Notes: generated by a model from the letters alone, not told the origin. Numbered from the stretch's first letter, positions 34,064-42,366 are shown. The stretch is 64,000 bases of DNA from Acidobacteriota bacterium (GCA_036507075.1 DASXQR010000163.1:1818-65817), one strand, 5' to 3'. Made by a program: numbers and translations.

Positions 34064-34372
34064 ATGAAGCTTGCCGGTTTCGGTTTACTTTTCTTCATCA
34101 TGTACTTCTTTGTTTTCCCCACTACCGCCTATGCTTACCTGGACCCGGCGGCGGGAAGCATCGCTTTACAGGTAATAGTGGGCGGCCTTTTGGCTGTTCT
34201 GGCAACGATCCGACTCTACTGGAAACGAATGAAGTCGATCATCACCAGACAAACTCAAACTCAAAATGGTGGCAAAATGGGGACAGTCCCCAATAATGGT
34301 CAAAATGGGGACAGTCCCCAATTAGACAGTCCCCAATTAGACTCCCGAAATCGGGGACAGACCCCCAATTAG
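34064..34372 (+). CDS. Small YLDP-motif membrane peptide with REP-derived C-terminal tail
   Basis: Signal peptide ending AYA, then YLDPAAGS, one TM and basic YWKRMK. The tail (MGTVPN, GDSPQLDSPQ) is translated REP DNA. Confidence 0.7.
   Translation: MKLAGFGLLFFIMYFFVFPTTAYAYLDPAAGSIALQVIVGGLLAVLATIRLYWKRMKSIITRQTQTQNGGKMGTVPNNGQNGDSPQLDSPQLDSRNRGQTPN
34279..34372. repeat. Left REP array (GGGGACAGTCCCC)
   Basis: Copies at 34279-34291, 34307-34319, 34325-34334 (partial) and 34353-34366 (variant). Confidence 0.88.
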
Positions 34373-34608
34373 CGCCCCGATTAGATTTGCATATTAGTAA
34401 TTTGGGCTCTCTCCCTTAAATCCGAGGCCTAAATTCGAGGCCTACCCTCGTTCTTTGGGGCCTGCGCCTCATTCCTTTCCAATTTCACCTTCCTTCGAAA
34501 CATTATTTCGCAGATTTGGAAGCAAGGGAGTTATGTCCGTGGTGAGGGAGTCGGAGGTGCACTCACAGCAGTACGTGGGAGCGGCTGCAGACTTTGAGGG
34601 TCAAAACT

Positions 34609-35292
34609 ATGCCACGGAAAGCAAGAATTGTCGTACCAGGATACCCACATCACGTCACTCATCGAGGCAACCGCCGCAGCGACATCTTTCTCGACGACGA
34701 TGATCGACGGTTTTATCTTTATCTGTTGCAGAAATACACGGAACGTTACAAGGTTGACCTGTGGTCTTACTCGCTCATGACCAACCATACTCACCTTATA
34801 ACATTACCTTACAGCAAAGAATCGCTCTCGGAAGCCATGAAAAGAGCAGACGGCCGCTACGCCATGTACTTCAACGCCAAGTACGGATTTGTTGGACACC
34901 TCTGGCAAGGGCGCTTCTTCTCTTGCGCTCTCGACGACCCACATCTGCGATCGGCAGTCCGTTACGTAGAACGTAATCCAGTCAGAGCCGGGATGGTGGC
35001 TCGGGCCGAGGATTATCCTTGGTCAAGCGCCGCGGCAAACTGCGGTGTAAGGCACGATCCAGTCTTGTCCGACGGCCTGCCATTAAAGCAGATCATTCCG
35101 GATTGGGCAAAGTGGCTGGAACAGCCGACAACAGAAGAGGAGTTCGAGAGAATCCGTCGAATGACCCGGGCCGGCCGGCCGTGTGGATCGGAGCAGTTTA
35201 TCGAAGAACTGGAGAAGTTATTCGGCCTTGACTTGAGACAAAAACCAAGAGGGAAGAAAAAAAAAGAGTTCGTCAGGACAGAAGGGGTCTAA
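34609..35292 (+). mobile_element. rayT: REP-associated tyrosine transposase (RAYT, Y1/HUH)
   Basis: MPRKARIVVPGYPHHVTHRGNRR, HUH motif MTNHTH, GHLWQGRF, YVERNPVRAG and YPWSS. Flanked by REP arrays. Confidence 0.92.
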
Positions 35293-35422
35293 AAGGGGGG
35301 TCTAAAAGGGGGACAGTCCCCCGTTTCATGGGTCTAAAAGGGGGACAGTCCCCCGTTTCATATCAAAAAGGGGACTGTCCCCTTTGTACATTTTGACATA
35401 AAAAAGGGGACTGTCCCCCTTT
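35284..35422. repeat. Right REP array (GGGGACAGTCCCC / GGGGACTGTCCCC)
   Basis: Perfect 32-bp tandem duplication (35298-35329 and 35330-35361), then two inverted copies at about 35366-35386 and 35401-35422. Confidence 0.9.
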
Positions 35423-36062: not shown

Positions 36063-36782
36063 CTATGGCGCACACTTCGAAACCGCAAATGAGACGGGGT
36101 CTGATAGAAGACCGCCGATCTCGACACGGAGTGTGTAGTGTCCTTCGTTCCCGTCGGTAAAAATCCCCCGTACACTCAGGTTGCCAGTGCTATCGGTTCT
36201 GCCCCACTCTAGAGTCTTCCAAGGTTTGCCACTGCTTGTTCCCACGAGGTGAACAGAGGTGTTCGGAAGTCCGCGGGTCACTGCCAAAGTCCAGGGACTT
36301 CCGGGACAAAATCTCGTCGCCTCCAGCGTAAGGACCGGCACAAGCGAACCACAGCGGCGCTCGTTGTTTGGGGTATTTACTGTCGTTGGATTTCCTTGAG
36401 GCACGATGAAGGTGTTGTACACCTCGACATCCTCTGTGCCCAGGTTTTTGGCTCTATGGACATGGAGTTCCGTCTCTTCGAAAGCCTCCCCCGCCTTGAA
36501 CACTTCCTCCTGACCACATCCATCCTCGACGGTCAGCGTGCCTCGCTTTATGACGTTGTAGGCGCGTCCAGGATGATAGTGCCAGGCGAGCACCTCTCCG
36601 GGCGATATAACGAGTTGTCGGACGGTCAATGTGGCAGGGCCGTCAAAGAGTTCCGAATGGGGTATGGTGCCAACAGCAATCACGGCAGTAGTTGCCGCGT
36701 ACGTCGACATGATACCGGCAAGAAATAGGACACTGAGGCCGGCTCCCAGCTTCACAATGCTGTTCAGAGGGTTTGTCTTCAT
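36063..36782 (-). CDS. Secreted cupin-domain protein with an extra C-terminal beta domain
   Basis: Signal peptide, cupin motifs WHYHPG and ETELHVHRAKN, and GGAA RBS before ATG 36782. Confidence 0.8.
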   Translation of the reverse strand: MKTNPLNSIVKLGAGLSVLFLAGIMSTYAATTAVIAVGTIPHSELFDGPATLTVRQLVISPGEVLAWHYHPGRAYNVIKRGTLTVEDGCGQEEVFKAGEAFEETELHVHRAKNLGTEDVEVYNTFIVPQGNPTTVNTPNNERRCGSLVPVLTLEATRFCPGSPWTLAVTRGLPNTSVHLVGTSSGKPWKTLEWGRTDSTGNLSVRGIFTDGNEGHYTLRVEIGGLLSDPVSFAVSKCAP

Positions 36783-36945
36783 GGTTGATTTCCTTTCTGT
36801 TCCCTGCTTGCTACGCGTTGCACGTGGGCAGTAAAATGGGCTGATAATGGCCGCCACCTCTACCCCGGGAGATTGTGGCTGGAGCCGCGGTTAAGAGTCT
36901 TTACGAGAGGCCTTCTTTTTTCTTCGCAATTCTTCCGGTTCTGCT

Positions 36946-38871
36946 ATGAGCAAGCAAACCCACCACTTCTACGAATTTGGCCCCTTCTCCCTCGATGCCG
37001 AGAGGCGACTGTTGCAGCGCAATGGCGACACCATTTCGCTGCCGCCGAAAGTATTGGACACGCTTCTTGCCCTCATTAAGAACAGGGAAGACGCGCTTAC
37101 CAAGGACGAACTGCTCAATCTGGTGTGGGGTGAAACGATCGTGGAGGAGGGGGGGCTCGCCCGGAACGTGTCTCTCTTGAGGAAAGCCCTGGGGGAGCGG
37201 CCCGACGACCATCACTACATTGTGACGGTGCCTGGCCGAGGGTATCAGTTTGTGGCGGATGTGACGGAGAAATGGGAGAACGGCAAGGAATCATCCGAAC
37301 CCATGCCGGCCGCAACGAAAAGTGGCTTGAGGCCGAAGGGGATTCTCTCGGCGCATCGCCGGCTGATTCTGGGAGGATTGGCCGCACTCGCCCTCGGGAT
37401 CCCGGCGTACCTGTTGATTTCTCGGATCATTCTCGAGCTAACGCAACCCGAAATCAGATCGCTGGCGGTGTTGCCCCTACAAAACCTGTCGGGCGATCCC
37501 GAACAGGAATACTTTGCCGATGGGATGACCGAAGCACTTATTGGAAGTCTCGCACAGATGCGCGCGCTCCGTGTTGCCTCCCGAACTGCTGTGATGCGCT
37601 TCAAGGGAAGCAAAAAACCGCTCCAGGAGATTTCGCGCGACCTGAAGGCGGATACCCTGATTGTCGGGTCGGTGCAGCCGGCGGGTGGGCGGGTCAAAAT
37701 CATGATTGAGTTGATCGACGGGCGCACCGATACGCACCTGTGGGCGCGCGACTACGATCTGGAAACGACGAATGTCCTGAAGTTGCAGGCCGAGGTGGCG
37801 CGAGATGTCGTCAGACGGATCAGGATCAAGCTGTCGCCGCAGGAGGAGGTACGCCTCGGGAGCGCTCTCCCGGTAAACCCGGAAGCTTATGATTACTATC
37901 TACGGGGACGGTATTATTCCAACCGACAAAACAAGGAAGACAACGAAGCTGCTGTCGTGAGTCTTGAGCGCGCTGTGGCCGTTGACTCGACGTTTGCTTC
38001 GGCCTATGCAGAACTCGCTCAGGCGTACGTGTGGAAGTTCTTTTTATTTGCGCCACAGGAAAGAAAGTGGGAGGAGAAGGCTTTCGTGGCGGCTGAGAAG
38101 GCACTTTCGTTAGATCCGGATCTGCCCATGGCTTATCTGGCGAGGGGACGCCTCCTCTGGACGCCCGCCAACCATTTTCCTCACGAGAGGGCCATTCACG
38201 AATATCGCCGCGCGCTGGATTTGAACCCGGAACTGGATGAAGCTCGAAATCAGCTTGCGCTTATTTATTGTCATATCGGGCTTTTCGATGAAGCGCTCCA
38301 GGAATCGCAAAAAGCGCTCGAGACCAATCCGAGCAATAACCTGGCGGTATATCGAACGGCACAGACGCTGATATTTCAGGGGAGGTATGAGCAAGGCCTA
38401 TCTGTTTTGCGGACCATCCCTGAGAAAGTCAATCCTGCGCTGGTTGGATACCAGATTCCCTGGGCCCTGTTCAATCTCGGGAGGAAGGAGGAGGCATCCG
38501 GCAGGCTCGAGCATGTGTTGAAGGAATACCCTGAAGACAGTGGCGGGCTGTATACGAGCCTGCAGGCGCTTCTAACGGCTTCAATCGGTCAAGAACGTCA
38601 GGCGGAGAAAAGGATCAACGAGGCGGTAGAACGGGGCAAAGGATTCGGCCACTTTCATCATACGGCCTATCACATCGCTTGTGCCTATGCGCTCATGAAC
38701 AAACCTGAGCCGGCCATCAAGTGGTTGGAGGCGGCCGCCCAGGATGGGTTCCCCTGTTATCCGTTGTTTGAGCGGGATGCTAATTTGGACAACCTGCGCC
38801 GAGATGTCCGCTTCATAAGGTCCATGGCACGCTTAAGGCAACAGTGGGAGCGCTACAGAACCCTGTTTTGA
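36946..38871 (+). CDS. Transmembrane regulator: CadC-like wHTH, TM, TolB-N-like domain, TPRs
   Basis: YEFGPFSLD...LRKALG...[11 protein letters not shown], a TM helix, [25 protein letters not shown], and TPR repeats. Confidence 0.9.
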
Positions 38872-38883
38872 TCGGTGTTTTCG
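38861..38883 (+). repeat. 23-bp direct repeat, left copy (CCCTGTTTTGATCGGTGTTTTCG)
   Basis: Identical to 40793-40815. Overlaps the stop codon of the regulator. Confidence 0.85.
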
Positions 38884-39024
38884 CGGCCGCTCTCCGATGA
38901 CTCACGGATCCAGTCGAGGCACAACCGGCGTGAGACGAGGAATTTGGTTATTTTTTGTGCACTTCAAACAATTGACCGTGCGCCTCGGTCGGTCGCGGTT
39001 TGCGCTCGGTTAGTTTGCAAACGC

Positions 39025-39387
39025 ATGATCCGCGAAATCGGATGTCGCGGAACGAGTGCTCGGCGGGGGTTCATCAACTTCGGGGAGGGTAAGGACAACC
39101 AAATGTCTTTTCTCGTCGACACTGGTGCAAGCGACTCGATGGCGCCAGCTGCAGAGCTCAGGAAGATAGGCGTGCAACCTGTGGGAAAGAGGACCTACGA
39201 ACTGGCGGATGGTACGATACACGAGTACCCGTTCGGACTGGTTGAAATTAGATTTATGGGCGAGGTGACTGCCGGTCGGGTGATCTTCGGCCCGGATAAT
39301 GTAGAGCCTTTACTCGGCACTACGGCGCTTGATTCAGCGGGTGTTACAGTTGATCCACGCGGCCAGACCCTGAGACGACTGCCTGCC
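39025..39387 (+). pseudogene. Clan AA aspartyl protease (AF_0612-like) lacking its own stop codon
   Basis: FLVDTGAS catalytic motif, [15 protein letters not shown] and RRLPA, then read-through into antisense kinase DNA. N-terminus atypical. Confidence 0.65.
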
Positions 39388-39908
39388 TCGGTTGGCAAAG
39401 CCGTCACCCTCGCCACTTCCGGTTCTGGCCGCCGTTCTGCCACTAGTTTGGCTAGCCCAAAGTCAAGAACCTTGGCTTGGCCGCGGACGGTAATGAAAAT
39501 GTTGGCAGGTTTGATGTCCCGATGCACAATCCCTTTTGAGTGCGCGGCATCGAGCGCATCGGCAATCTGAATTGCCAATTCCAGCAATTGGTCCGTCCGA
39601 AACGGCTTTCGCACCATGCGCGGTTTGAGCGTCTGGCCTTCGAGCAGTTCCATGACCATGAATGGCTGGTCTTCGTACACTCCAATGTCGTAAATGGTGC
39701 AGATATTAGGATGGTTCAAGGCAGAGGCAGCACGGGCTTCGCGTTGGAAACGTTCCAGCGCCTGACGGTCCCGCGAGAAGTCTTCGGGGAGGAATTTCAG
39801 CGCCACGTAGCGGCCGAGCCGAGGATCTTCGGCCTTGTAGACGACCCCCATGCCGCCGCCACCGAGCTTCTGCAGAACACGGTAGTGGGAAATCGTCTTG
39901 CCGATCAT
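39385..39908 (-). pseudogene. 3'-truncated Hanks-type Ser/Thr protein kinase
   Basis: [22 protein letters not shown] and DFG are present. No APE motif or later subdomains; the frame runs into the antisense protease sequence. Confidence 0.8.
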
Positions 39909-40113
39909 TCAAAGAGATCTCCGTCCGGAAAAGGCAATGGCACGATTATATCAAGAACGACTTGATCCTTAGTCTGTCACTGCGGCATTCCGTAAATAGT
40001 TGCAAGTGTTAGATTCTGATCCAAGCAAGTGCAGTTTTCGCAGACCCTCCTAATTCAGAATGGGCGGATCAGTTGTTTTAATTGGCGATCTGACCCGACG
40101 CTTCGCCTTACGC

Positions 40114-40142
40114 TTGACGTAACGCGTATTAAACGTTACTCT
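40114..40142 (+). promoter_or_regulatory. higBA promoter, predicted leaderless transcript
   Basis: TTGACG-N17-TACTCT, with the ATG 5 nt after the -10 box and no RBS. An imperfect palindrome (ACGT...ACGT) spans the spacer. Confidence 0.65.
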
Positions 40143-40147
40143 AGGAA

Positions 40148-40432
40148 ATGATCGTCAGCTATCGGAATAAACGCACTAGAGGTTTTGCTGTCGGAAAAAA
40201 AGTCAAAGCCTTTTCTGGGATCGAGCGTGCGGCGCACCTGAAGCTTGATCGTCTCGAAGCCGCAGTCATCCTGAAAGATCTGGCTGCCTTACCGGGCAAT
40301 CGCTTTGAAGCGTTAGTAGGGGATCGGAAGGGCCAGTACAGCATCCGTATTAATGATCAATGGCGTATCTGTTTTGAGTGGCCCGATAAATCCCCTGGTC
40401 CCGAGAATGTAGAGATTGTTGATTATCACTAG
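40148..40432 (+). CDS. higB: HigB toxin (RelE/ParE superfamily)
   Basis: LPGNRFEALVGDRKGQYSIRINDQWRICF and terminal VEIVDYH. Confidence 0.93.
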   Translation: MIVSYRNKRTRGFAVGKKVKAFSGIERAAHLKLDRLEAAVILKDLAALPGNRFEALVGDRKGQYSIRINDQWRICFEWPDKSPGPENVEIVDYH

Positions 40433-40442
40433 GAGAAGCGTT

Positions 40443-40745
40443 ATGGCACTTACGGCTATCCACCCAGGGGAACATTTAGCCGAAGAATTGGAGGCGTTGA
40501 ATATGAGCGCTGCGGCGTTGGCGCGCCAGCTCAAAGTACCTACGAATCGTATCACCGAGATCATAAATGGACAGCGCGCCATCACGGGAGACACAGCGCT
40601 GCGTTTGGCCCATTTCTTCGGCACAACCGCGGAGTTTTGGTTGAATCTGCAGAGCCTATACCAACTGCGGGTAGCGGAGCACAAGGCAGGCAAGTCCATC
40701 AAAGCGCTGCCGAGACTTAAACGCCAGGAACCTATCCCGGTCTGA
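40443..40745 (+). CDS. higA: HigA antitoxin (XRE HTH)
   Basis: IHPGEHL, RAITGDTALRLAHFFGTTAEFWLNLQ; downstream of the toxin. Confidence 0.93.
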   Translation: MALTAIHPGEHLAEELEALNMSAAALARQLKVPTNRITEIINGQRAITGDTALRLAHFFGTTAEFWLNLQSLYQLRVAEHKAGKSIKALPRLKRQEPIPV

Positions 40746-40792
40746 TATGTGTCCCGGAATCGGCGATCCCACAAAATCACGCGACCGCCCCT

Positions 40793-40815
40793 CCCTGTTT
40801 TGATCGGTGTTTTCG
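40793..40815 (+). repeat. 23-bp direct repeat, right copy
   Basis: Identical to 38861-38883. Confidence 0.85.
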
Positions 40816-40816
40816 T

Positions 40817-40854
40817 AAAAAAGGGGTCTAAAAAAAGGGTCTGTCCCCCTTTTG
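40817..40854. repeat. Distal REP copy (AAGGGGTCTAAAAAAAGGGTCTGTCCCCCTTTT)
   Basis: Shares GGGGTCTAAAA and TGTCCCCCTTT with the right RAYT array. Confidence 0.7.
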
Positions 40855-40902
40855 GCCAGGGATCTTATTCATTTCACGCTTTCGCGCCTTCGCGGTTCCG
40901 GC

Positions 40903-42366
40903 TCAGGCGAGGATCTTTGACACCACTTCGCCATGGACGTCTGTGAGGCGGAAATGACGGCCCTGGAATTTGTACGTCAGCAAAGTGTGGTCAATGCCAA
41001 GGCAGTGAAGGATAGTGGCCTGCAGGTCGTGGACATGTACCGGATCAGAGATGATGTTGTATCCGTAGTCGTCGGTTTCGCCCAGCGTAAACCCCCGTTT
41101 GATGCCGCCTCCCGCCGCCCACATGGTGAAACAGCGCGGATGATGGTCACGTCCGTAGTTGTGTTCCGTCAATTTGCCCTGACAATAAACGGTGCGCCCA
41201 AATTCCCCGCCCCAGATCACCAGCGTGTCATCGAGCATTCCACGCTGCTTCAAATCCTGAATCAGTGCCGCGGTGGGCTGATCAGTCCCCTGGCATTGCA
41301 GCGACAAATCGCGCGGCAGATCGACGTGCTGGTCCCACCCGCGATGATAAAGCTGGATGAAACGAACATTGCGCTCCGCCAGTCTTCGCGCCAGCAGGCA
41401 ATTGGCCGCATACGTGCCGGGCTTTCGCGAATCGGGTCCATACAGCTTGAAGATGTGATCCGGCTCGCCGGAAAGATTCATCAGGTCAGGAACCGATGTT
41501 TGCATACGGTAGGCGAGCTCGTATTGGGAAATGCGCGTGTCGATTTCCGGATCCGCATACGATTCCGCCTTGATATGGTTTAATTGGGCTACGGCGTCGA
41601 GCATTTGCCGCCGCGTAGTGCGATTGATTCCCGGCGGATCATTCAGATACAGCACCGGATCGGCGGCCGATCGAAAACGCACCCCCTGGTGGCTCGACGG
41701 AAGAAATCCGCTTCCCCAAAGACGTGAAAACAAAGGCTGATCCGTGTTCAAACCGTTAGCCTGCGAAATCAGCACCACAAACGCGGGCATGTCCTGATTC
41801 TCCGTACCCAGTCCGTAGCTGATCCATGCGCCGATGCTGGGACGTCCCGGCTGCTGGCTTCCACTTTGAATGAAAGTGATCGCCGGGTCGTGATTAATCG
41901 CATCGGTGTTTACCGTCCTGATGATGGTGATGTCGTCGACAACCTTTGCCGTGTGCGGAAGCAGCTCGCTCAGCCACACTCCGGATTTGCCGTGCCGGCT
42001 GAACTTGAACAGGGATTGAACCACCGGGAATCTCGGCTGGCCTGAAGTCATGCCGGTGATGCGCTGACCCATGCGCACCGAATCGGGCAGGTCTGTGTCA
42101 TGTAACTTGGTGAGAGCCGGCTTGTAATCGAACAAGTCCAGTTGCGAAGGGCCGCCGGACTGGTGCAGGTAGATAACACGCTTAGCCGTTGGCTTGAAGT
42201 GCGGCAAACCTTTCAGACCGCCGTTGCCTGCCTGAGCTGTCGAAATCGCGGCAAACAGATCAGGGTGCAATGCCGCCGCCAGCGCCGCCACGCCGATCCC
42301 TTTGCTGGCAAGACCAAATAGCTGCCGACGCGTCATGGCGAGCTGGAATTCTTTATCGATTGTCAT
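40903..42366 (-). CDS. DUF1501 family (sulfatase-like, Tat) protein
   Basis: TRRQLF twin-arginine, AKRVIYLHQSGGPSQLDLFD, WGGEFGRT, GRDHHP, and VHVHDLQAT. Confidence 0.9.
   Translation of the reverse strand: MTIDKEFQLAMTRRQLFGLASKGIGVAALAAALHPDLFAAISTAQAGNGGLKGLPHFKPTAKRVIYLHQSGGPSQLDLFDYKPALTKLHDTDLPDSVRMGQRITGMTSGQPRFPVVQSLFKFSRHGKSGVWLSELLPHTAKVVDDITIIRTVNTDAINHDPAITFIQSGSQQPGRPSIGAWISYGLGTENQDMPAFVVLISQANGLNTDQPLFSRLWGSGFLPSSHQGVRFRSAADPVLYLNDPPGINRTTRRQMLDAVAQLNHIKAESYADPEIDTRISQYELAYRMQTSVPDLMNLSGEPDHIFKLYGPDSRKPGTYAANCLLARRLAERNVRFIQLYHRGWDQHVDLPRDLSLQCQGTDQPTAALIQDLKQRGMLDDTLVIWGGEFGRTVYCQGKLTEHNYGRDHHPRCFTMWAAGGGIKRGFTLGETDDYGYNIISDPVHVHDLQATILHCLGIDHTLLTYKFQGRHFRLTDVHGEVVSKILA

Follow-up and report, generated by a model that had tools for sequence, protein, structure and literature searches.

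What does it mean when a toxin-antitoxin operon lies between two exact copies of the end of a neighbouring gene, with no recombinase gene beside it? The question is raised by a 64,000-nt stretch of the genome of an Acidobacteriota bacterium (GCA_036507075.1, DASXQR010000163.1:1818-65817), called here the window, in which the perfect 23-nt direct repeat CCCTGTTTTGATCGGTGTTTTCG encloses the remains of two genes and an intact higBA pair, its left copy overlapping the stop codon of a regulator gene. The original prediction, made from the sequence alone, took this repeat for an att-like or target-duplication scar of a minimal island, kept by HigBA addiction and excisable by recombination, possibly with help in trans. 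The comparisons reported here bear out the repeat and the contents of the bracket and lend no support to the excisable island; they lead us to propose, with somewhat less than even confidence, that the right copy is a fossil gene end from a homology-anchored acquisition and that higBA slows the loss of the resulting islet.

Results

The two copies of the 23-mer (Table 1), 1932 nt apart, are the only ones in the whole 6.1-Mb, 233-contig assembly, and the sequence is absent from the metagenome_contigs, genome_contigs and viral_contigs collections. Within the window no third match appears at up to three mismatches, and 100 shuffles gave none. Identity ends sharply after 23 nt at both sides, local alignment of the surroundings adds nothing to it, and the flanks of the two copies are unrelated to each other on either side. 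The repeat is real: it is unique, it is not random, and what it duplicates is the end of the regulator gene; sequence and reading frame agree with the predicted positions and with the overlap of the left copy with the stop codon, and the objection that the 23-mer might be a high-copy repeat, for which a search for other genomic copies had been advised, fails on a count of two in 6.1 Mb. Several trivial explanations were rejected: chance or a high-copy repeat by the shuffles, the mismatch scan and the genome count; membership of a repetitive extragenic palindromic (REP) family by a count of two copies against 158 genome-wide matches to the REP core, REP units lying beside the right copy and none within it; and a structured RNA, an attC site or a terminator in the repeat by the lack of any Rfam match and of any fold beating shuffles.

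Orthologs of the regulator at 77-92% protein identity all end in ...RYR(T/S)LF*, and a contig of the sequencing run X4 equals the window without mismatch over 38843-38891, that is through the 23-mer and the next 8 nt, before unlike DNA follows. On these two observations the left copy is native, the regulator 3' end being the template of the repeat, and the right copy can be read either as the fossil of the 3' end of a second regulator allele or as a target or att duplicate. Both copies recur at equal spacing in three independent assemblies, namely a JGI contig identical to the window (L043), the JGI assembly of a sibling sample (L044), which departs from it by six single-nucleotide polymorphisms (SNPs) and one 18-nt indel, and a Logan contig of run X1 (L045) with 10 SNPs, and a further Logan contig (L046) spans the right copy. 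All three sampled strains carry the occupied locus, and an assembly artefact is ruled out by the sibling assembly and the Logan contigs, which bear strain-level differences.

The gene that provides the repeat has close relatives in unrelated surroundings. Its closest orthologs are encoded on contigs L020 (92% protein and 93% DNA identity), L021 (88%) and L022 (77%), further relatives occur on contigs of runs X3 and X4 (the X4 gene is 94% identical), and a 426-nt fragment of its 3' end (94% DNA identity) is found in G001 (L004 1501-1926), a metagenome-assembled genome (MAG) of another genus, with an MFS transporter gene on one side and an unrelated one on the other. All that these relatives have in common with the window is a cupin-regulator pair (window 36063-38871), whose homology starts at the cupin stop and ends at or just after the regulator stop; neighbouring genes differ every time, and unlike DNA begins 0-20 nt after the regulator stop in every relative, L020 and G001 being identical to the left copy of the 23-mer as far as that stop codon. 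The pair is 79-93% identical to copies on the otherwise non-syntenic contigs L020 and L022, which suggests that the cupin-regulator module and pieces of it have been exchanged horizontally. The identity profile of the cupin and regulator genes against L020 has no sharp break marking a recombination breakpoint. In the X1 strain all 10 differences over 2.6 kb are packed into the 65 nt at 38774-38838, just upstream of the left repeat, and four of the 10 are common to L020, X3 and X4; the patch looks like a short gene-conversion tract. With this SNP patch and with 93-94% identical pieces in the unrelated contexts of G001 and L020, the regulator is an anchor gene that is common to several lineages and recombines, as homology-anchored acquisition supposes.

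The DNA just inside the left repeat, a non-coding segment here named P1, bears directly on the nature of that edge. In L020 a stretch of 58 nt homologous to 39025-39082 starts six bases past the regulator stop and is followed by unrelated DNA (alignment score 86, against a maximum of 24 in 300 shuffles), X4 shares the 8 nt mentioned above, and P1 homology in the post-stop DNA of L021, L022 and G001 is not significant. Parts of P1 are linked to the regulator in L020 and X4, lineages apparently without the rest of the cassette, and for this reason the left edge of the repeat does not have the appearance of an element boundary. Were the 23-mers att cores or a target duplication, P1 would have to be element DNA, and L020 and X4 would therefore each require an occupied ancestor and separate deletions. 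P1 is also polymorphic, since a contig of the soil run X11, otherwise identical, lacks 38958-39096 (139 nt).

Domain searches agree with the prediction that two broken genes and an intact higBA lie between the copies, unaccompanied by an integrase or transposase, no such domain being detected within the bracket with Pfam. Nor does the bracket hold any recombinase, transfer, phage or insertion sequence (IS) remnant or an inverted repeat joining its inner ends; its phage and plasmid matches amount to generic similarity of higBA and the kinase, and a search of 38500-41200 against Rfam at E <= 1 gave no match, and so no attC-like integron site. One of the broken genes is an internal fragment of an aspartic protease, from which about 23 N-terminal and five C-terminal codons of a 120-aa gene are gone (the native end, ...RRLPAISLK*, is visible in L038 and X23), and the other is the 5' part of a Ser/Thr kinase gene that covers Pkinase positions 1-152 of 263 and stops right behind the DFG motif. 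Neither was captured as cargo on its own. L038, a contig of another MAG, carries an intact protease gene and a full kinase gene as convergent neighbours; window 39109-39386 is 93% identical to L038 5070-5347, within the intact 120-aa gene, and window 39389-39750 is 94% identical to L038 7284-7645. Because the pair is contiguous in L038, the junction 39386/39389 of the window is a 1936-bp deletion. Other genes of the L038 contig (an RND pump, a PAP2 phosphatase) have no match above 74% in the genome under study, in which no part of the bracket has a second copy, and since the protease and kinase pieces are 93-94% identical to this otherwise distant contig they look imported. Further to the right, the sequences from X4 and X18 part from the window beyond 39959, and X41 crosses this point and joins kinase and higBA. 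Taken together, the bracketed DNA looks decayed, and at least part of it looks foreign. The 120-aa protease family itself is very widespread, with at least 120 cluster representatives 73-91% identical to the window fragment (P0241-P0360) and more than 1400 matches at E <= 1e-10, some of them in records that bear the names Nitrospinae and Acidobacteria; it is unusual to find a gene of this size so well conserved, and this hints at frequent transfer.

The higBA pair is the only intact content of the bracket. HigB is the sole member of its family in the genome, is encoded as an identical protein by four independent assemblies and matches no NCBIfam model, and HigA scores 97 bits against TIGR02607 (cut-off 47.7). 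The genes lie toxin-first on one strand with a 10-nt gap, the order of type II HigBA pairs. Upstream of them are a promoter-like TTGACG (40114-40119) and TACTCT (40137-40142) separated by 17 nt, which is putative and was not flagged by a consensus scan, and GTAACG-N9-CGTTAC, an inverted repeat resembling an operator, at 40119-40139; probably the transcript has no leader. Nucleotide homology to other genomes of the class is confined to the operon (about 40100-40720, starting at 40100-40108), higBA cassettes in other genomes have no conserved flanks in common, and the 47-nt tail between higA and the right repeat has no similarity to the regulator 3' coding region. Because nothing else in the segment is intact, it is reasonable to infer, as had been proposed, that higBA keeps the segment by addiction. 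Chromosomal type II toxin-antitoxin pairs, HigBA among them, stabilise dispensable DNA in superintegron cassettes and genomic islands. The pair described here is like these in being toxin-first, in having a putative promoter and operator of its own and in being the only intact content of a decaying stretch; unlike superintegron HigBA, it does not lie in an integron, there being no attC-like match, and its stabilising effect is presumed. In another genome of the class (L030; G048:C111) a higBA homolog (76% DNA identity) and two small open reading frames lie between imperfect 52-nt repeats (315-366 and 2244-2295; 79% identical, 1929 nt apart) with nested palindromes in them (TATGGATCTATCCATATCGATATGG).

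An empty site was sought in 61 relatives and 137 genomes of the class, by exact and degenerate pattern scans of two collections, in the contexts of the closest regulator and DUF1501 proteins and in the contigs of 15 public runs; none of these searches yielded one, the three strains being all occupied and the remoter relatives non-syntenic. The contigs of those runs that hold the locus contain no excision joint, although contigs would miss rare forms, and no parent element was found in phages, plasmids or viral contigs. Donor-type arrangements occur in pieces only, that is regulator with P1 (L020, X4), protease with kinase (L038) and kinase with higBA (X41), and outside the occupied strains no one contig joins these pieces. 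The claims that the segment is an att-like minimal island, possibly mobilised in trans and excisable by recombination, find no support here: we found neither a recombinase remnant nor the core in any other element or genome, and neither an empty allele nor, in metagenome contigs, an excision joint.

The locus is not the only one of its kind in this genome. A scan for unique exact direct repeats within 15-80 kb, in which about 0.1 pairs of at least 21 nt are expected by chance, gave four pairs that are sharp-edged on both sides (21, 22, 23 and 26 nt): the locus under study (C163), C26, C132 and C10, and toxin-antitoxin genes lie inside three of the four. In C132 an orphan PF09720 antitoxin is enclosed together with an outer-membrane-like gene and a paralog of the winged-helix/TPR regulator, the latter accompanied by a divergent secreted-protein gene; the C10 bracket contains two ParE toxins, a PF09720 antitoxin, an IS91 Y2_Tnp fragment and a broken hydrolase gene. 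The two C10 copies each provide the final codons and TAA of a gene, namely parE (...RDA*) at the far end and a 78-aa gene (...GDA*) reading into the bracket; an exact protein look-up of the flank gene gave no record. Empty alleles of C10 and C132 were not found in X1, X2, X3, X5 or X11 (for C132, in four runs). The genome has seven ParE_toxin, five PF09720 and one HigB matches, and five of these 13 fall within three brackets that add up to 11.8 kb, or 0.19% of the genome, a figure that is indicative only, the families having been picked post hoc.

Imperfect low-copy repeats gave two more cases, C224 and C46. The C224 repeats consist of the last 55 or so codons of a neighbouring gene and about 170 nt of downstream flank. 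In C46 the inner repeats are surrounded by outer ones of 360 nt, 92.5% identical, each of them a copy of the 3' end of an MBL-fold hydrolase gene; third codon positions account for 20 of the 27 differences between them, and owing to this excess the copies must have diverged as functional alleles in separate lineages and are not duplicates made by insertion. The C46 repeat is then the end of a foreign gene and that of a resident one. In all, the genome has at least four further addiction-type cassettes between low-copy direct repeats of 21-360 nt.

To the right of the bracket, the expected REP of the kind associated with REP-associated tyrosine transposases (RAYTs) is indeed found immediately behind the 23-mer, starting at 40817: its units, of the AAAAGGGG-TCTGT-CCCCCTTTT type, resemble those around an IS200-like RAYT gene at 34610-35292 (REP arrays 34279-35420). 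The sibling assembly L044 has 18 nt more at 40829 (L044 3257-3274), which makes two REP units against 1.5 in the window. These units probably act as a terminator region shared by the genes that converge on them. Highly identical counterparts of the right flank come only from X1 and X2, both occupied strains, and the contig of the closest DUF1501 ortholog ends 41 nt past the gene. A separate repeat of about 46 nt (...TTCACGCTTTCGCGCCTTCGCGGTTCCGGCTCAGGCG) occupies 40855-40903, beginning at the DUF1501 stop; it has more than 40 copies in the genome, reaches very high depth in several soil metagenomes and is distinct from the GGGGACAGTCCCC REP.

Table 1. Features of the window around the direct repeat, followed by the repeat-bracketed cassettes found in the same genome
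Feature	Position	Strand	Remarks
Regulator gene	36946-38871	+	641 aa; winged-helix Trans_reg_C and TPR (Pfam)
Left 23-mer copy	38861-38883	+	Last three regulator codons (T-L-F), TGA and 12 nt of 3' flank
P1	38884-39108 (225 nt)		Non-coding; just inside left repeat
Protease fragment	39109-39386	+	Clan-AA (retropepsin-like) aspartic protease (Pfam; NCBIfam TIGR03698)
Kinase 5' fragment	39387-39959	-	Ser/Thr kinase; 174 codons (start codon 39908) and 51 nt upstream
higBA upstream region	39960-40147	+	Putative promoter, read from the sequence
higB	40148-40432	+	Intact; 94-aa RelE-fold toxin; PF05015, E = 9.5e-13
higA	40443-40745	+	Intact; 100-aa HTH antitoxin; TIGR02607 antidote_HigA equivalog, HTH_3
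Tail	40746-40792 (47 nt)		Between higA stop and right repeat; ends at presumed illegitimate joint 40792/40793
Right 23-mer copy	40793-40815	+	Seen in L043, L044, L045 and L046
REP hairpin units	40817-40854		One base after right 23-mer
DUF1501 gene	40903-42366	-	PF07394, E = 2e-156; convergent with regulator and higBA; right flank
C163 (locus under study)			Repeat 23 nt; spacing 1.9 kb; higBA and debris
C26			Repeat 26 nt; spacing 3.1 kb; no toxin-antitoxin gene seen
C132	L041 2146-2167, 8323-8344		Repeat 22 nt (26/27 with next bases); spacing 6.2 kb
C10	L040 2600-2620, 6280-6300		Repeat 21 nt; spacing 3.7 kb
C224	1-1623		HEPN/MNT pair between 339-nt repeats, 93.5% identical; first copy cut by contig end
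C46	17663-21170		Fic/DOC (DUF4172 and Fic) gene; inner 50-nt repeats, 94%, 1578 nt apart

Discussion

We favour a history in which the right 23-mer is what is left of a gene end and not an attachment site used by a mobile element. The unique repeat, the mosaic with its deletion, the regulator-linked P1 of other lineages and the recurrent gene-end repeats at addiction cassettes of this genome are seen directly; a donor and a recipient, a route of recombination and a stabilising role for higBA we infer. The donor would have been DNA of a related acidobacterium with its own regulator end, P1, the protease/kinase pair and higBA, and in the recipient the REP terminator and then the DUF1501 gene would have come straight after the same regulator gene; the argument is symmetrical, and it could as well be the DUF1501 side that came in. 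One side would have been resolved through the common regulator sequence, either by homologous recombination or by a single crossover of a circularised fragment carrying a short patch of homology, and the other would have been joined illegitimately 23 nt short of the point at which the resemblance between the two loci ends. In this way the final 23 nt at the resident's regulator locus would have stayed behind, downstream of the insert. Later erosion of unselected DNA can be seen in the 1.9-kb deletion that fuses protease and kinase, in the 139-nt indel that is still polymorphic and in the REP indel, with higBA left intact presumably since cells that delete it are poisoned; that higBA alone is intact would fit post-segregational selection against deletions. 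Such a history explains both sharp edges, one as the end of homology and the other as the illegitimate joint, and it accounts as well for the lack of a recombinase, for P1 being linked to the regulator in other lineages, for a cargo of ordinary chromosomal genes and for the varied repeat lengths at the other cassettes. That P1 travels with the regulator in L020 is as expected of a donor locus, not of an element arm.

Processes of this kind have precedents. A single crossover of circles with partial homology duplicates the homologous stretch, 109-950 bp in E. coli (PMC3240628), and homology-facilitated illegitimate recombination (HFIR; de Vries & Wackernagel 2002 and Prudhomme 2002, as cited in PMC5361080) has been proposed for the displacement of toxin-immunity modules (PMC5361080). 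The locus is like these systems in that foreign DNA stands beside a conserved anchor gene without a dedicated recombinase, that the homologous stretch may end up duplicated on both sides of the insert, and that fossil gene ends or immunity genes are left, as in the type VI secretion system arrays of V. cholerae and in the displacement of Rhs C-termini; it is unlike them in that the leftover is only 23 nt and the illegitimate joint has no microhomology.

A number of points speak against a fossil gene end, and the confidence we place in it takes them into account. A length of 23 nt is at the lower limit for a RecA-dependent crossover (the minimal efficient processing segment), and HFIR in experiments mostly deletes recipient DNA and does not duplicate it; the length of 23 nt is moreover typical of att cores, as a site at a gene 3' end is of integrases. 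There is no microhomology at the joint 40792/40793, and our searches found neither a locus of the recipient type (regulator, 23-mer, REP, DUF1501) nor a complete donor locus. The cassette could have been present in an ancestor of L020 and X4 and for the most part been lost since, further loci of the genome may have arisen by different routes, and the toxin-antitoxin enrichment, a post hoc figure, is indicative only.

It could be argued instead that the 23-mers are attL and attR of an integrative element that entered at the regulator 3' end by means of a tyrosine or serine recombinase and later shed its integrase and the bulk of its cargo, so that the segment would be a fossil resembling the cis-mobilizable elements (CIMEs), maybe excisable in trans by a related integrase. 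Such elements, decayed integrative and conjugative or integrative and mobilizable elements (ICEs and IMEs) that retain attL and attR, are a defined class (PMC5704250), and like them the locus has short direct repeats with the target gene 3' end and no integration or transfer genes left. The repeat, 23 nt in length, has sharp edges and runs over the end of a protein gene, whose reading frame it preserves; like many islands, the locus carries its toxin-antitoxin pair at the distal end; in every relative different DNA sets in 0-20 nt from the regulator stop, which is the pattern of an integration hot spot; and the genome has 15 Phage_integrase matches, some of them beside toxin-antitoxin genes. 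We nevertheless consider this origin unlikely. The bracket holds no trace of an ICE or IME gene and no integrase, relaxase or phage remnant, no related intact element is known to us from the searches above, the core is used nowhere else in the genome or in the three public collections, and no excision joint appeared in the contigs of the locus-bearing runs, where rare forms would be missed. The cargo is, moreover, the ordinary chromosomal gene pair of a relative, and parts of the P1 DNA at the inner left edge adjoin the regulator in L020 and X4, apparently without the rest of the cassette, so that the edges of the repeat do not coincide with those of foreign DNA, as they would in a CIME.

The repeat could also be a target-site duplication: the segment, of 1.9 kb or at first larger, would have gone in at a cut whose ends were staggered by about two helical turns, with later fill-in, through an unknown enzyme or one acting in trans, such as a transposase with long duplications. 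The narrow range of the sharp-edged repeats and the addiction modules inside three of the four brackets point in this direction, and integrase-free insertions of restriction-modification units with long, variable target duplications have been described, with a criterion of more than 30 bp (Furuta, Abe & Kobayashi 2010; PMC2853133; the class also rests on Nobusato et al. 2000, as cited there), as have duplications of 19-26 bp for IS1630 (PMC2853133). Here too an addiction-type unit without a mobility gene lies between low-copy repeats copied from the target, the insert is shorter than 20 kb (1.9 kb) and repeat length varies by site within one genome (21-360 nt). Yet the cargo is a toxin-antitoxin pair and debris and not a restriction-modification system, 23 nt falls short of the 30 bp, the empty site that defines the class did not turn up in the searches above, where all three strains are occupied, and the long C46 copies are diverged alleles and not insertion-made. 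In contrast with an IS or a transposon, the segment has neither inner terminal inverted repeats nor a transposase, and P1 is again common to lineages apparently without the rest of the cassette; a target duplication seems to us quite improbable. Still a little less credit can be given to the absence of any insertion, that is to native DNA reshuffled in place by duplication of the regulator end plus deletions, or by a REP-associated event, the 23-mer being then accidental and unrelated to higBA. The region is visibly unstable (the 1.9-kb deletion, the 139-nt indel, the 18-nt REP indel, the SNP patch), a REP hairpin abuts the right copy, and the protease-kinase and kinase-higBA adjacencies exist in other samples; however, it is unlikely that a mere leftover would have two independent sharp edges at a distance of exactly 23 nt, the protease and kinase pieces, single-copy and 93-94% identical to a genome otherwise at 74% or below, indicate import, and toxin-antitoxin genes are enriched in such brackets genome-wide.

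The fossil-end history, if correct, reaches beyond this locus, which itself looks like an ordinary recombination scar around an intact HigBA, with no sign of present mobility. As such it is ordinary genome debris held by a toxin-antitoxin pair, and the wider pattern may matter more: within one 6-Mb genome, several unrelated addiction cassettes lie between low-copy repeats that copy gene ends, none of them with a recombinase. It is tempting, if doubtful, to suppose that addiction modules (HigBA, ParE, HEPN/MNT and Fic) spread here, and perhaps widely, without a recombinase, through gene-end patches recombined by the host, that they leave duplications of 21-360 nt behind and then protect the insert, and that the locus is one decayed example among at least five. 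If these repeats are homology-anchored fossils, they would record both the entry of selfish cassettes that lack mobility genes and the origin of the donor. The case also cautions against taking any sharp-edged repeat of 20-25 nt at the 3' end of a gene for an att site without further ado.

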